This document shows, in pieces, positions 7,775 to 16,592 of a stretch of DNA of 31,435 bases. This DNA is from an uncultured Syntrophomonas sp. Its GTDB lineage: Bacteria > Bacillota > Syntrophomonadia > Syntrophomonadales > Syntrophomonadaceae. The first letter of the stretch is position 1. Every line of letters starts with the position of its first letter. The notes beneath the pieces were generated by a model that had not been told where the DNA came from, did not search any database, and saw only the letters and a program-made list of their open reading frames with translations. The stretch is taken from contig CAZPSR010000002.1 in assembly GCA_964589135.1 (NCBI GenBank), forward strand, positions 1-31,435, read 5' to 3'. Made by a program: the position numbers and the translations under genes.

Positions 7775-10700
7775 TTACGCTACTATAAAAGTATTAACAA
7801 AGGTCTGGTGGATTATTCCAGTTACACAGAAAGATTTACACTCCCGCAAAAAGTTTTGCATAATCTGTGCTGCCTCGGCTCTGGTGGCTTGGCCTCGGGG
7901 ATCAAGCACGCCACCGCCCTTGCCGTTTATAATCCCTGTTTGATTTGCCCAGGCCAGAGCGTTTTGGGCATAGGCTGATATTTCTCCGGCATCTTTAAAG
8001 GCGGCAAGTACTTGGCTGTCAACTGCCGCAGGTGAGCCTGCATATTTCCAGAGCATGGCCGCCAGCTGTTCCCGGGTTATGCTGTCATCAGGACCAAACA
8101 TTTTGTTGCCGTATCCTGTTATGATATCTTTCTTTTGAGCCCAGGCTACGGCATTGGCATAATATGCGCCGGGTTTTACATCATTGAAGGTGCTTTGCGC
8201 AGTTTCGCCGGAACCGTCCAGATTGTACAGAATCGTGGCAATCATGCCGCGGTTGGTAACGACTCCGGGTGAAAAGGTATTGCTGCCGGTTCCCTTCATC
8301 AGGCCATTCTGTGCTGCGTACTGCACTGCAGAATAATACCAGTCGCCTTCCTTCACATCACTGAAGGGATTTGCCCATGAGGCGTCATCCTTAGTACCTA
8401 CGACGTACAGGGAGAAGTGATTGACCTTAAAGGTTGCCAGCTTAGTGGCCGAATCATAGCTACAGGGCACTTCGCTCATTGTGCCGTCCTCCGCCAGATA
8501 CCATACGGTAACTTCCTCTGCTTTTTCTCCGGTTTTCAGTTCATAAGGAAGGGATACTGTCGCGGTGCCGTTTCCGAAGCTGGTGATGTGCTTGCCTCCC
8601 GCGGTGATCGTCAGAGATACGACCAGCCGATCAGGATGTTCGTTTTTATAGTCGGCGGAAACATCTTTCATTTCCACCTTGATGCTGCCGGAGGTCTGGC
8701 TAACGATGCCCTTGAGGGCGTCGGTTCCGAACACGAGCTTTGCGCCGTTATCACCGTCCACTGTCAGGGTTTTTCCGCCGGAAACCAGCCGGTCAAGGTT
8801 TGCGCCGGTCATACTGCCGCCATTGTCAATCTCGGTGACCAGAGGCGGAGTGTAGCTACCGCCGCCGCCGGAGGAGGGGCGGTTGCTGATGGTCAGGACG
8901 CCTTCTTCGTGGATAATTGCGTTGTAGTTGCCGCCGTCAGGAGCTACAGCGCCGGTGATATTAATGGCCATCGTACCTGTCTTAGTCATGTCAGGTGCGC
9001 TGGCGTATGCAATAGTGGGCTTGGTTTTTAGCGTCTCACCGCTTACCAGCCCGGTTACGGTGTAATCATCATCGCCCAGCACCGGCGCAGTGGCGCCCAC
9101 ATAGGCACTCTTGTCCTTTGCTGTGACGGTGATGGTGGCTTGAGCGATGGTGAAAGTAATGTCTGCGTGTGCACCGGTGTAGTCACCATTTGTATCTGCC
9201 ACGGAGACCGCCAGCTTGTAGGCACCTGCATCGGTGGGGGCTGTGGTTGCATTATAGCCACCGCCATCGGTGCTGGTGTAGGTGTAGAGCAACTCATTCG
9301 TAGGAACCTTGCTGTCGGAAACGGTCACAGTGCCGGTGTAGCCGATTTGGGGCATACCGTCGTAGACCAGATTGGAGGCGGCAGTTAAGCCGGAAATGGT
9401 GACTGTTTCCTTGTTTTCGGCGGTAATGGTAACCACCACGTCATAATCGTTGTAGTTTTTAGCTCCGGTGACAGGAATGGTGATGGTGGCGCTGGTAGCT
9501 GCGTGACTGGCGGTGCTAAAAGTCAGCGTTGTGCCATCCACGGAGTGGCTGGCAATCAGCGCAGCAGTAGCGCCAACGGTGCCGGACGCAGCGTAGCTTG
9601 CCCCTTCGGGGAGGTCGGTGGGCAGAGCAATCGTCAGATTGCTTTCTGATTTGTTTGACCGAACCGTCTTGGACGCTGTCGTTTCGCCGGTATGGTCCGC
9701 TTTTTCAATAGTGTAGTTACCCAGCGACAGTCCGGTTACAGCGTTGTACTCTGCATTGCCGACAATGTCTACAGTAATGCCGTAGGTGCCTGCATTGGCA
9801 GGGGCGATAGCGTTGCCATTGTAATAAACGGTGATTGCGCCCAAGTTCTTGCTAGACACAGCCGTCACGGACAGGGGCTTGGCATTACCGTCATAGACTA
9901 ATGCAGTCAGGGAATAGGTCAGATCAAATTTAGTAGGCGTGCCCTTTACAAACTCTGAGATGGTCAGCTCTTGGCTGTCGCTGGCCAGTACCGTGCCGGT
10001 GGCCTTGACCCTTACATGATAGGTACCGGGATCCAGAGAAATGGGGTTGCCATCGCCGCTTGTCCAGGTGGAATCTGTGGACAATTTATACTCCATTTCG
10101 GTAGCCACGCCAACAATGGTACCCTTGCCGGACACTGTCGCGTTGCTTGCGGTGGCGATGGGTGTTGCTGCCTTGCTTATGCTGATGGTCTTAACTTCGC
10201 CAGCTTTGGTAGTTTCCGTTTCCTTAAGACGCACTTTAATGCCGCTGGTGCTAATGTCGGCGCTGGACAAATCCATATTCTCGCTGCAGTCTGACCAGCT
10301 GATTCCATCGTCCAGGCTGTATTGCATCAAAGTGGCTGCGCCCATCAGCTTGTTGGCGTTTTCGCCGTCAAAGGAGAAGGTAACAGTTGGTGCGGGGGGG
10401 CCATCCAGTTTGCTAACCTCAATTAACTGCTGCGAAGAAATGCTTGTGTTTTTCGCCGTCACAGTGACCGAGGAGTCGGTCGATTTCAGAGGATCCGTTT
10501 TGTCTACAGTGTAGTCTGTGAAGTTGCTATCCGTTGTGCCGTCGTCATAGGTTGCGGTGACGACCATGCCCGTTTTGTCAAAGGTTTCTCCAACCTTATA
10601 ACTCTTCTTTTCCGGCTGTGCTGTGATGGCAATGGACACTAATTCACGCACCGCAGTAGCGGGAAACGCAATGCTCACAATCAAATTTCCATCGTCACCG

Positions 10701-15286: not shown

Positions 15287-16592
15287 TGGCTGCTTTTCCA
15301 AGCTTATTAATAGCTATGACCATTCTGTTTGGCATTATTGCGCAGATGCTTCTTTTAGATATCCGTATCAAAAACCTTAAAGGTAGTCGGCGCATATTTT
15401 TCGGGGTTGGAAATCTGCTGGTTCTGGCGGTGAATACTGTACTTTCTCAAGTTTTGCCGACGGATCAGTACATGAAGCTCTATGTACTGGTCATTCACGT
15501 TCCTATCTTTTTTATTTTTTGGATTACAGCCCAAACCTCCGCAATAAAAGTAATTTTCGCCTTGTTTACCGCAGTCTTTTTGATTTACCCAGCCAATTTG
15601 GTGCTGACCATCGTTTCACAAACTGCAAAATGGCTTTATCCGGCAGGATTTTTGATTTCATACCTTGCCGCATGCGCAGTTATACTGCTGGTTATTTACC
15701 GATTTTTCAAAACAAATTTCAAACATTTAATCAAAAACTATAGCGAATCTAGCTTTATAAAGCTTTGCCTGCTTCCGTTAGCGTATTATATAGTCAACTA
15801 CTGGTTGGGACTGTATAACTTTGCCGCTGACAGGGCTGCAGGAGTTTTTTCGCTGCGCACCCTTATTTTTATTATCACACTTACCGCCTATGTTCTGATT
15901 TTGGATATAGCAAAATCCGCTCGTGAAAAGGAAGCCTTGCAGGGAGTAAAGATAGCCTTATCCTTGCAGCTGGAGAGTGCAGAACAACAATTGTCCGCCC
16001 TGCAGGCTACGCAGGAGCAGGCCGTCGTATACCGCCACGACATGAGGCATCATCTGGCTCTGATTGGCGGGTACCTTGCCGATGGAGACATTGAAAAGGC
16101 GGATAAATATGTAAGGCTTGCACAGGCTGATATCGAGGATATCACCCCCAACCATTATTGTGAGAACAACACCGTCAATCTTATTTTGTCCTTCTTTGCG
16201 GCGAAAGCGAAAAAAATGGCGTTCTTTTTTCAGTGGATGCCCAGCTGCCACAGGCTCTTTCCTTTCCCGAAACTGAGCTGTGTGCCCTGCTGTCAAACGG
16301 CTTGGAAAACGCCATAGAAGCTGCTGCACAGGTTGCTGGTGAACAATTCAGAAAAGCAAGAATCAGCTGCCAAACCCACAAAGGCAATTTGCTGATTTTT
16401 ATAGAGAACAGCTTTACGGGTGAGTTGGCAATGGAGAACGGCTTGCCGCAAAGCCTCCGGGAGGGTCATGGCTTTGGGGTTAAAAGCATGGCCATGATTG
16501 CTGAAAAGTATAACGGCTGCTGCTTCTTTGAGGGCAAGGGTGAGATATTTACCCTGAGGATTGTGCTGCCGTGCCTGCCACCAACTTATTAA
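15286..16592 (+). pseudogene. AgrC/VirS-like membrane GHKL sensor histidine kinase, frameshifted at an A7 run (16210-16216)
   Basis: Multi-TM N-terminus and H-box YRHDMRHH in ORF 15283-16317. N-box LLSNGLENAIEA and G-box HGFGVKSM in ORF 16233-16592. One extra A gives AKKNGVLFSVDAQ and a continuous 435-aa kinase. Confidence 0.88.
16571..16589. repeat. Family B unit GTGCCTGCCACCAACTTAT forming the last codons of the kinase
   Basis: 18/19 identical to 17202-17220. Confidence 0.65.

Follow-up and report, generated by a model that had tools for sequence, protein, structure and literature searches.

What does an agr-like two-component system control when agrB and agrD are missing from its surroundings? 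We asked this question of DNA from an uncultured Syntrophomonas sp. (contig CAZPSR010000002.1), analysed as a window of 31,435 nucleotides (nt). Positions 7775-16592 of this window hold a LytTR/GHKL regulator-kinase pair that faces the gene of a small membrane protein, here called mini-LemA, and the gene of a giant surface protein. On the plus strand, an extended −10 sequence is followed by the receiver-LytTR regulator and then by a membrane kinase whose gene overlaps the regulator stop codon. On the minus strand, the order is a pair of LytTR boxes, a −10, a leader, a Shine-Dalgarno sequence, mini-LemA, a 460-nt relic, the gene of a protein of 1896 amino acids (aa) and a terminator-like hairpin. 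The regulator/kinase pair, the tandem boxes, the gene of the small membrane protein and the 1896-aa leucine-rich repeat (LRR)/S-layer homology (SLH) gene had all been listed in the initial annotation of this DNA, and each was found where it had been placed. Having compared the arrangement with about 115 related loci, we propose that the locus is probably one copy of a recurrent three-part module of anaerobic Firmicutes, composed of a LytTR two-component system, mini-LemA and a variable cargo gene.

These parts recur together. Working outward from mini-LemA, we gathered 36 distinct loci through the contigs encoding its homologs and through a scan of one genome per species. A divergent LytTR regulator and/or kinase was present at 20 of the 27 distinct loci with at least 2.3 kb of upstream sequence (regulator and kinase both in 13, regulator alone in 4). 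Downstream, a co-directional open reading frame (ORF) of at least 250 aa lay within 1.5 kb at 25 of the 29 loci whose downstream sequence was long enough, and 18 of these 25 were at least 800 aa long or ran off the contig. The co-occurrence of small-ORF homologs with divergent LytTR/GHKL genes and a large co-directional gene, usually SLH-anchored, had been put forward initially and is borne out by these counts. Moreover, of 41 tandem-box matches counted over 1.08 Mb of fetched DNA, 38 lay directly upstream of a mini-LemA gene. The flanking genes differ between loci, and plain synteny therefore does not explain the recurrence.

The divergent regulatory region and its LytTR boxes

The features of the locus are the following (window coordinates).

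7698-7726, minus strand: terminator-like intrinsic hairpin, a 13-bp stem then a T run, directly past the LRR/SLH gene
7775-13465, minus strand: cargo gene, 1896 aa, LRR/SLH, from domain matches
13466-13925, minus strand: relic spacer of 460 nt between mini-LemA and the cargo gene
13926-14249, minus strand: mini-LemA gene, 107 aa, with its CTG start at 14249-14247
14258-14263, minus strand: Shine-Dalgarno AGGAGG, 8 nt 5' of the CTG start
14250-14416, minus strand: 5' leader of the predicted mini-LemA transcript, carrying relic DNA with a 56-aa ORF
14421-14426, minus strand: −10 hexamer TATTAT of the putative box-dependent promoter, aligned with TAnAAT of other loci
14458-14489, minus strand: two LytTR boxes ACATTTCAGG, consensus and spacing after PMC5600425
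14520-14528, plus strand: extended −10 TGGTAAATT, candidate regulator-kinase promoter, read from the sequence
14564-15286, plus strand: response regulator, 240 aa from TTG, from Pfam domains and homologs
15286-16592, plus strand: membrane histidine kinase with a broken frame, from domains, H-box and comparison with intact homologs

The regulator ORF (14519-15286, plus strand) contains Response_reg and LytTR domains in Pfam, and its true start is probably the TTG at 14564, which gives a homolog-like length of 240 aa. Its score on the NCBIfam AgrA model, 47 bits against a cut-off of 400, is so far below the threshold that we do not consider it an AgrA orthologue. The extended −10 TGGTAAATT is kept in loci that retain the regulator and is likely to be the promoter of the regulator-kinase operon. 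The kinase, with its multi-pass sensor region, the H-box YRHDMRHH and HATPase_c_5, is split over two ORFs (15283-16317 and 16233-16592, plus strand), the second of which bears the HATPase_c_5 match in Pfam. Compared with the intact homologs of L001 and L007 (86-91% identical), exactly one base is missing in an A7 run at 16210-16216, and the broken frame is specific to the window copy. Either this defect is a homopolymer error of the assembly, or the window copy relies on another kinase, or it is switched off; the regulator, the boxes, mini-LemA and the 5.7-kb cargo frame are intact. The whole 31-kb window held no agrB or agrD ORF, no AgrB-like domain and no AgrB-like multi-pass profile, and AgrB and AgrD were not seen in the gene lists of related loci, so that the description of an agr-like LytTR/GHKL pair lacking both genes stands. 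At four other loci (L020, L025, L027 and L028) the divergent LytTR regulator is intact and the adjoining kinase gene is absent, leaving orphan regulators.

Two perfect ACATTTCAGG boxes lie at 14480-14489 and 14458-14467 on the minus strand, 22 bp apart from start to start, that is, a 9-bp core plus a 13-bp spacer. This tandem pair occurs once in the window versus never in 100 shuffles. The LytTR consensus has been given as [TA][AC][CA]GTTN[AG][TG], usually as repeats that are separated by 12-13 bp and stand ahead of a weak −35 (PMC5600425). The sequence ACATTTCAG fits this consensus at 8 of 9 positions, with a 13-bp spacer, about 31 nt ahead of the −10. The putative box-dependent promoter has its −10 (TATTAT) at 14426-14421 and a weak −35, with a predicted transcription start near 14414. 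Relative to this start the box centres are at about −48 and −70, and relative to the predicted regulator start on the opposite strand at about −50 and −72. Because the pair is about equidistant from the two divergent predicted starts, autoregulation of the regulator-kinase operon is possible as well.

Of all parts, the promoter is the best conserved. Loci of several families can be aligned on the boxes, the −10, the Shine-Dalgarno sequence and the position of the start. In the close subfamily, both boxes are found at all loci with upstream sequence; they deviate by 3 mismatches at most and precede the start codon by about 95-103 nt. The more distant subfamilies have a changed box, such as ACCACTCATG or ATCGTTCATG, but retain its position, its 21-22-bp period and a GAAAA-rich spacer. 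The boxes are also kept in loci without an adjacent two-component system (L002, L009, L012 and L014), so that the tandem LytTR boxes first noted as facing the small-gene operon are not only present but conserved in position even where no system adjoins them. Stand-alone copies are presumably still controlled in trans, since their boxes are preserved. Two of them, L014 (9740-9943) and L019 (1046-1690), contain fragments of deleted regulator/kinase genes; in L019 the first 190 nt or so of the regulator gene run directly into the final 58 nt of the kinase gene. These relics argue that the stand-alone copies descend from complete modules.

Among the three box matches that do not precede mini-LemA, one, in L027, is a perfect pair directly before a second SLH gene without mini-LemA. 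It is located at L027:322-353, about 95 nt 5' of the gene of an 831-aa SLH protein (443-2935), and the same locus has a unit of regulator, boxes, mini-LemA and SLH cargo. A box promoter is therefore able to head a cargo gene directly, and this second boxed gene would fit a small regulon. At L049, a related two-component locus whose kinase is 39% identical, a perfect box pair (2608-2639) faces no LemA-type gene but an ORF at 1599-2477 on the minus strand with an N-terminus that looks tyrosine recombinase-like.

From this anatomy, and from what is known of LytTR regulators in general, we propose the following scenario. The GHKL kinase and the receiver-LytTR regulator would be transcribed in one direction, and the phosphorylated regulator would bind the two direct repeats of 9-10 bp, 22 bp apart, and activate the opposite-facing promoter with its weak −35. 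The first gene of this promoter would be the single-pass membrane protein mini-LemA, translated at a low level from its CTG codon. The transcript would then read on into the variable cargo, here a putative wall-anchored BspA-type LRR adhesin, and end at the terminator at 7726-7698. Binding of the boxes by the regulator, co-transcription of mini-LemA with the LRR gene and, as a result of the whole arrangement, signal-responsive expression are what the anatomy suggests.

The leader and the spacer of this putative operon look like remnants. The initial annotation had treated the 56-aa ORF (14246-14416), with its CTGA overlap, as a coupled gene of the operon. Both are literally present in the sequence. 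The ORF has no Shine-Dalgarno sequence, its ATG falls at the predicted transcription start, and it is missing from all related loci but one. In most homologous loci no more than about 55 nt of leader separate the −10 from the Shine-Dalgarno; window positions 14286-14445 have no counterpart in L001 or L018, and about 110-160 nt are absent from most homologous loci. L019 alone shares part of this stretch, which there consists of a relic of a second mini-LemA copy, KKELKAKQKMVESAASQLAASR, then a cargo-gene fragment (…TWHCDDIGKAGNAMFVF). It is by chance that the relic frame ends on the start codon of mini-LemA, and the CTGA overlap is therefore incidental. Pfam and NCBIfam gave no match for the 56-aa ORF or for a 77-aa relic ORF, and no RNA family of Rfam was found in 13300-14700. 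We conclude that the 56-aa ORF is relic DNA and not a conserved gene, and its role as a coupled gene is abandoned. As a candidate AgrD-like propeptide it was also rejected, being unconserved, devoid of a Shine-Dalgarno sequence and located inside relic DNA.

The 460-nt spacer on the other side of mini-LemA holds a Shine-Dalgarno sequence with an 8-codon stub, MKKLLPLM-stop (13907-13881; 13920-13881 with the Shine-Dalgarno), a beta-helix-like fragment and, at about 13543-13715, a frameshifted SLH-like repeat. This repeat reaches 24.7 bits against a self-built SLH profile, only after frameshift correction; the frame-corrected peptide has no Pfam match at E≤0.01, and blastx of 13466-13930 against all cargo ORFs found no homolog. 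The SLH relic noted initially thus holds as a match to our own profile but goes unreported by Pfam at that threshold. We read the spacer as the remnant of an earlier cargo gene, and spacer and leader together as probable debris of earlier cassettes.

Mini-LemA and its relationship to LemA

Only with the CTG at 14249-14247 as its start codon does the 107-aa ORF at 13926-14249 exist. Across distinct loci the aligned first codon is CTG in 14, TTG in 17 and ATG in 2, and a Shine-Dalgarno sequence lies about 8 nt upstream at every locus compared. CTG or TTG thus occupies a conserved start position, and the CTG of the window is the normal start of the family, not a defect. Mini-LemA would be poorly translated from such a codon, and the near-universal CTG/TTG start offers a clean natural case of selected non-ATG initiation. 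In the close subfamily the Shine-Dalgarno is separated from the start by 8 nt of near-invariant DNA, AATGAAGC, after which comes CTGAC (window 14247-14257, L001, L007, L012, L020 and L025). They include an out-of-frame ATG 1 nt past the Shine-Dalgarno, which might damp translation. We rejected this ATG as the real start, followed by a frameshift: the spacing is too short, and in L014 a TAG follows the ATG directly.

A scan with Pfam and NCBIfam gave no match for the protein, the Pfam LemA model included at E≤0.1. Homologs of about 100-120 aa, 46 in number and 60-91% identical, occur in Syntrophomonadaceae, Desulfotomaculaceae, Ruminiclostridium and Desulforamulus. When 1.84 billion cluster representatives were searched with a profile, 203 clusters matched at E≤0.001, nearly all of 95-125 aa. 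The family, for which neither Pfam nor NCBIfam has a model, thus comprises at least 203 clusters at 50% identity. Purifying selection acts on the gene, with a median ratio of non-synonymous to synonymous substitution rates (dN/dS) of 0.22 over 17 loci. An AlphaFold2 model of mini-LemA, with a mean predicted local distance difference test score (pLDDT) of 93, shows a helix at residues 2-52 that includes the membrane span, a loop, a helix at 59-84 and a short helix at 90-95. The hydrophobic stretch 2-25, as read from the sequence, has no preceding charge and is followed by HRELRAK. This points to a single N-terminal transmembrane helix with the N-terminus outside and a predicted cytoplasmic helical hairpin, at the end of which stands the strongly conserved motif YNQTLLKPWNLLPGFLLGF. 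Rare natural fusions (P0092, P0102 and P0181) combine the mini-LemA domain with a polysaccharide deacetylase plus a second membrane helix, with a coiled-coil tail, or with a bactofilin. The fusion with the second helix and the extracytoplasmic deacetylase and that with the bactofilin fit a cytoplasmic C-terminal domain.

We then asked whether the protein deserves the name LemA-like that it had been given. It falls short of the gathering threshold of the Pfam LemA model (26.2 bits), and weak LemA matches appeared in only 3 of 31 family members, the best with E 0.05. However, when 159 family sequences were aligned by hhalign with 118 LemA proteins, retrieved with the 2ETD sequence, the probability was 95.4, the E-value 1.9e-8 and the score 49.7. 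Without the transmembrane helix the probability was still 91.9 and the score 39.2, whereas 30 column-shuffled LemA profiles and one reversed LemA profile scored at most 16.8. In the alignment the membrane helix and the first helix fall on the beginning of LemA, whereas LemA residues 141-176 or so correspond to the last helix with the tail, and two long gaps lie between; about 70-85 central LemA residues have no counterpart in mini-LemA. Other searches were negative. Helix 1 alone had no significant match to LemA, and a narrow 31-sequence alignment against the single 2ETD sequence in hhalign aligned the expected C-terminal motif at a probability of 1.5%. A sequence profile search of the PDB gave no LemA match, only noise, and a Foldseek search of the PDB with the AlphaFold2 model returned generic helical hairpins only (E>0.9), without 2ETD. 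The first designation is thus right as to remote homology, detected by hhalign and broad profiles, and wrong if taken as membership of the Pfam LemA family. By these alignments mini-LemA is an internally shortened LemA that lacks the two central helices.

The genomic neighbourhood points the same way. In a metagenome scan with the kinase, at least 9 loci of related kinases (31-34% identity) had a full-length LemA as the divergent gene; seven of these proteins, tested on Pfam, matched LemA with E 1e-17 to 1e-39. The mini-LemA hidden Markov model matches full-length LemA proteins at both ends. The promoters of the full-length lemA loci are built like those of mini-LemA: the boxes are of the TGTTTCATG type, their period is 21-22 bp and the spacer is GTCGAAAAA. 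DUF2207 is found downstream. The association of LytTR systems with genes of the LemA type is older and wider than the SLH cargo.

The likeness to the LemA family (PF04011; 2ETD of Thermotoga maritima) covers the single transmembrane helix, which is N-terminal and leaves only a very short end outside, the first helix after the membrane span, the last helix and tail, Y-N-x-x-[LI]-x-x-P-x(4)-[PA]-x-x-[LF]-x-G-F, and the divergent position beside related LytTR systems that full-length LemA genes occupy. Mini-LemA differs in its length, about 105 aa versus about 185, and in its predicted hairpin; a soluble domain of about 150 aa, folded in 2ETD as a four-helix bundle, is not present. It further differs by the CTG/TTG start and by surface cargo, instead of DUF2207, downstream. 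To our knowledge LemA, a membrane protein very widespread among bacteria, has no known function; its abundance was apparent in at least 8000 candidates, all at E≤1e-5.

The cargo genes and their conserved ends

The cargo protein of the window matches LRR_5 (E 4e-73) and three C-terminal SLH domains (E 2e-35) in Pfam, as well as Big_3, Cadherin-like and MBG domains, and its N-terminus, MKKRLLSILLTLCMMLTLLPTVATA, reads as signal-peptide-like. These matches uphold its identification as a 1896-aa BspA-LRR SLH protein. A strong hairpin with a T run at 7726-7698, the only strong terminator, follows the gene and is likely to mark the end of the operon. Within the gene a tandem duplication covers 10274-11611, with a spacing of 1038 bp and about 346 repeated residues; the reference copy, 10274-10573 (300 nt), recurs at 11312-11611 with 93% identity.

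The cargo differs from locus to locus. Calx-beta with IG_AIR9, Cadherin-like, Big_5, Glug, Flg_new/MBG/LysM and LRR_5 domains were found, in proteins that are mostly SLH-terminated, and the genes downstream of distant family members encode GGDEF, AraC, Fic, DUF2207 or metallo-beta-lactamase proteins. At the DNA level, the SLH-coding 3' end of the window gene (7846-8383) is 79-90% identical to the SLH ends of otherwise unrelated cargo genes elsewhere, and the mini-LemA gene is 75-93% identical between loci whose middle parts are unrelated. Cargo is thus exchanged between conserved ends, and this combination of a conserved 5' mini-LemA, a conserved 3' SLH end and unrelated middles favours cassette exchange by homologous recombination. 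The initial annotation had imagined fixed regulatory and accessory genes with interchangeable SLH cargo. The cargo does vary as supposed, but the invariant core is the two-component system with the LemA-like gene, and SLH cargo is no part of it. Syntrophic and cellulolytic anaerobes such as Syntrophomonas, Desulfotomaculaceae and Ruminiclostridium appear to put giant wall-anchored adhesins under one signal-dependent promoter, and the apparent swapping of adhesins between conserved ends bears on cell-cell attachment in methanogenic consortia.

Two further SLH proteins are encoded in the window. A giant one of 2301 aa (406-7311, plus strand) converges on the LRR gene and has CBM_X2, fn3, CarboxypepD_reg, Big_5, Big_2 and three SLH domains; the 405 nt available upstream of its gene contain neither a mini-LemA nor a box pair. 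The other, of 722 aa (27774-29942, plus strand), is PepSY/YpeB-like with DUF4901 repeats and one SLH domain, and is unrelated to the module.

Possible roles of mini-LemA and alternative readings

The module leaves the question of what mini-LemA does. We tentatively favour, as a possibility, that it is a membrane-tethered cytoplasmic hairpin that would exert feedback on its own two-component system, through either the kinase or the regulator. This is favoured because no other target than mini-LemA or LemA is conserved throughout the clade, whether cargo is present or not. Feedback proteins are encoded beside other two-component systems, such as cpxP, divergent from cpxRA, MgrB for PhoQ and Sda for KinA. 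Like them, mini-LemA is a small and mostly helical protein whose gene would be a prominent direct target of the neighbouring system; in contrast, it has no sequence relationship or detectable fold relationship with any of them, and its predicted topology is that of a membrane-anchored cytoplasmic hairpin. In the LytTR Regulatory Systems HdrRM and BrsRM of Streptococcus mutans, a small membrane protein controls a LytTR regulator (PMC6193735). These systems have in common with the module the LytTR regulator and the small membrane protein, and their direct repeats are spaced by 11-13 bp about 10 bp before the −35 (PMC6193735). Their regulators, however, lack both a receiver domain and a kinase, and the gene of the inhibitor follows that of the regulator in one transcript, whereas the module has a receiver domain, a cognate kinase and a divergent membrane protein, for which an inhibitory role would be hypothetical, by analogy.

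Alternatively, mini-LemA might serve the cargo, as a membrane factor for giant Sec-exported wall-anchored proteins that protects or organises the membrane at the export site, or that tethers the long mRNA to the membrane while being inserted itself. Such a function, the main alternative, is in our view rather unlikely. In its favour, the genes that directly follow in the close subfamily encode signal-peptide-bearing, SLH-anchored proteins of 1000-3500 aa, mini-LemA is intact at operons without a local two-component system, the deacetylase and bactofilin fusions point to envelope functions, and lemA was reported to be up-regulated in a signal-peptide-peptidase mutant of Flavobacterium columnare (PMC13236525). 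However, the loci L006/L046 and L009/L022 have the two-component system and mini-LemA without surface cargo, distant members precede GGDEF, AraC, Fic or metallo-beta-lactamase genes, and the boxed promoter of L027 drives an SLH protein without mini-LemA. Tethering of the mRNA alone would not account for the strongly conserved cytoplasmic motif either.

The two-component system could also control mini-LemA only, the LRR/SLH gene being independent and located downstream by chance after a rearrangement. The 460-nt relic that separates the two genes is itself evidence of past rearrangement at this junction, and it has a weak hairpin-plus-T at 13666-13645. Yet the spacer shows no sigma-70-like promoter site, its one weak terminator-like hairpin corresponds to the number obtained by chance in shuffles, and the sole strong terminator follows the LRR gene. 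Moreover, in L017, the closest relative with the same LRR cargo, the gap between mini-LemA and cargo is about 83 nt, and elsewhere it is 4-377 nt. We therefore hold an independent LRR gene to be improbable. That the region is merely a decaying, non-functional remnant, with the module as inherited synteny, is highly improbable: the frameshifted kinase, the small ORF without an ATG, GTG or TTG start and the two stretches of relic DNA would agree with decay, but the CTG/TTG start is the family norm, mini-LemA is under purifying selection, regulator, boxes and the 5.7-kb cargo ORF are intact, flanking genes vary too much for synteny to suffice, and the base missing in the A7 run may be an assembly error, A8 or AAAAGAAA being the intact alternative.

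Several observations nevertheless weigh against a three-part module with mini-LemA as its feedback component. The adjacent two-component system is absent at 7 of the 27 loci and four have a regulator without a kinase, and the partnership is therefore not obligatory in cis. In the reverse direction, among 37 distinct regulator-kinase loci, 8 had a divergent mini-LemA and 6-9 a divergent full-length LemA, and about half of the related kinase loci had no LemA-like neighbour. The boxed SLH gene of L027 implies that mini-LemA is not needed in cis for cargo. In the window itself, the copy may not work with its broken kinase, and the relic between mini-LemA and the LRR gene makes a separate LRR promoter possible. 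Finally, the feedback role is argued from position and analogy only, and, Foldseek being uninformative, we make no fold-based claim.

A bolder version of the feedback reading is that LemA proteins, full-length and shortened, are an integral third component of a widespread clade of LytTR two-component systems, as membrane-tethered partners that report on or reset the state of the kinase or the regulator. The arrangement flanked by mini-LemA and SLH would in addition be a recombination cassette for the exchange of giant adhesins behind one signal-controlled promoter. We consider this reading unlikely as a whole. If true, it would give a large family a role and establish a new, three-component layout of signalling.

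How much of this is new? The agr loci, with AgrC/AgrA and the divergent promoters P2 and P3, share with the module the LytTR regulator, the multi-pass HATPase_c_5 kinase, the divergent units and the direct repeats, which are paired, 12-13 bp apart and placed ahead of a weak −35; surface and virulence factors are among the outputs. They differ in that the window has no AgrB, no AgrD and no RNAIII-like RNA (Rfam, 13300-14700), and in that the divergent unit of the module encodes a LemA-like membrane protein. The LytTR two-component system, the direct-repeat promoters and the SLH adhesins are of known kinds. What appears undescribed is the mini-LemA family, the systematic back-to-back pairing of LemA-type genes with LytTR systems and the cassette-like exchange of giant SLH cargo. 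In open-access full-text literature we found no paper describing the module and none on LytTR together with SLH or S-layer homology; LemA with LytTR, or LemA with DUF2207, were co-mentioned only incidentally, in keeping with the first remark that a LemA-like partner of such a system was not recognised as described. The poorly understood LemA family would thereby obtain its first regulatory context, LemA or its shortened form being a conserved, predicted direct target beside a clade of LytTR systems, and LemA function becomes testable by simple genetics.

Other genes of the window are housekeeping context. Beyond the kinase lie a MoaE-like ORF (16723-17235), an acetyl-CoA hydrolase/transferase gene (17437-18732) and, at 18844-21438 on the minus strand, an ordinary methionine-type ATP-binding cassette (ABC) importer unrelated to the module, in which a permease and an ATPase bearing a NIL domain accompany an NlpA lipoprotein. 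The window contains no mobility gene; at L001:15786-18110 (Syntrophomonas curvata), an IS21-family IstA/IstB pair lies directly 3' of the SLH cargo gene.

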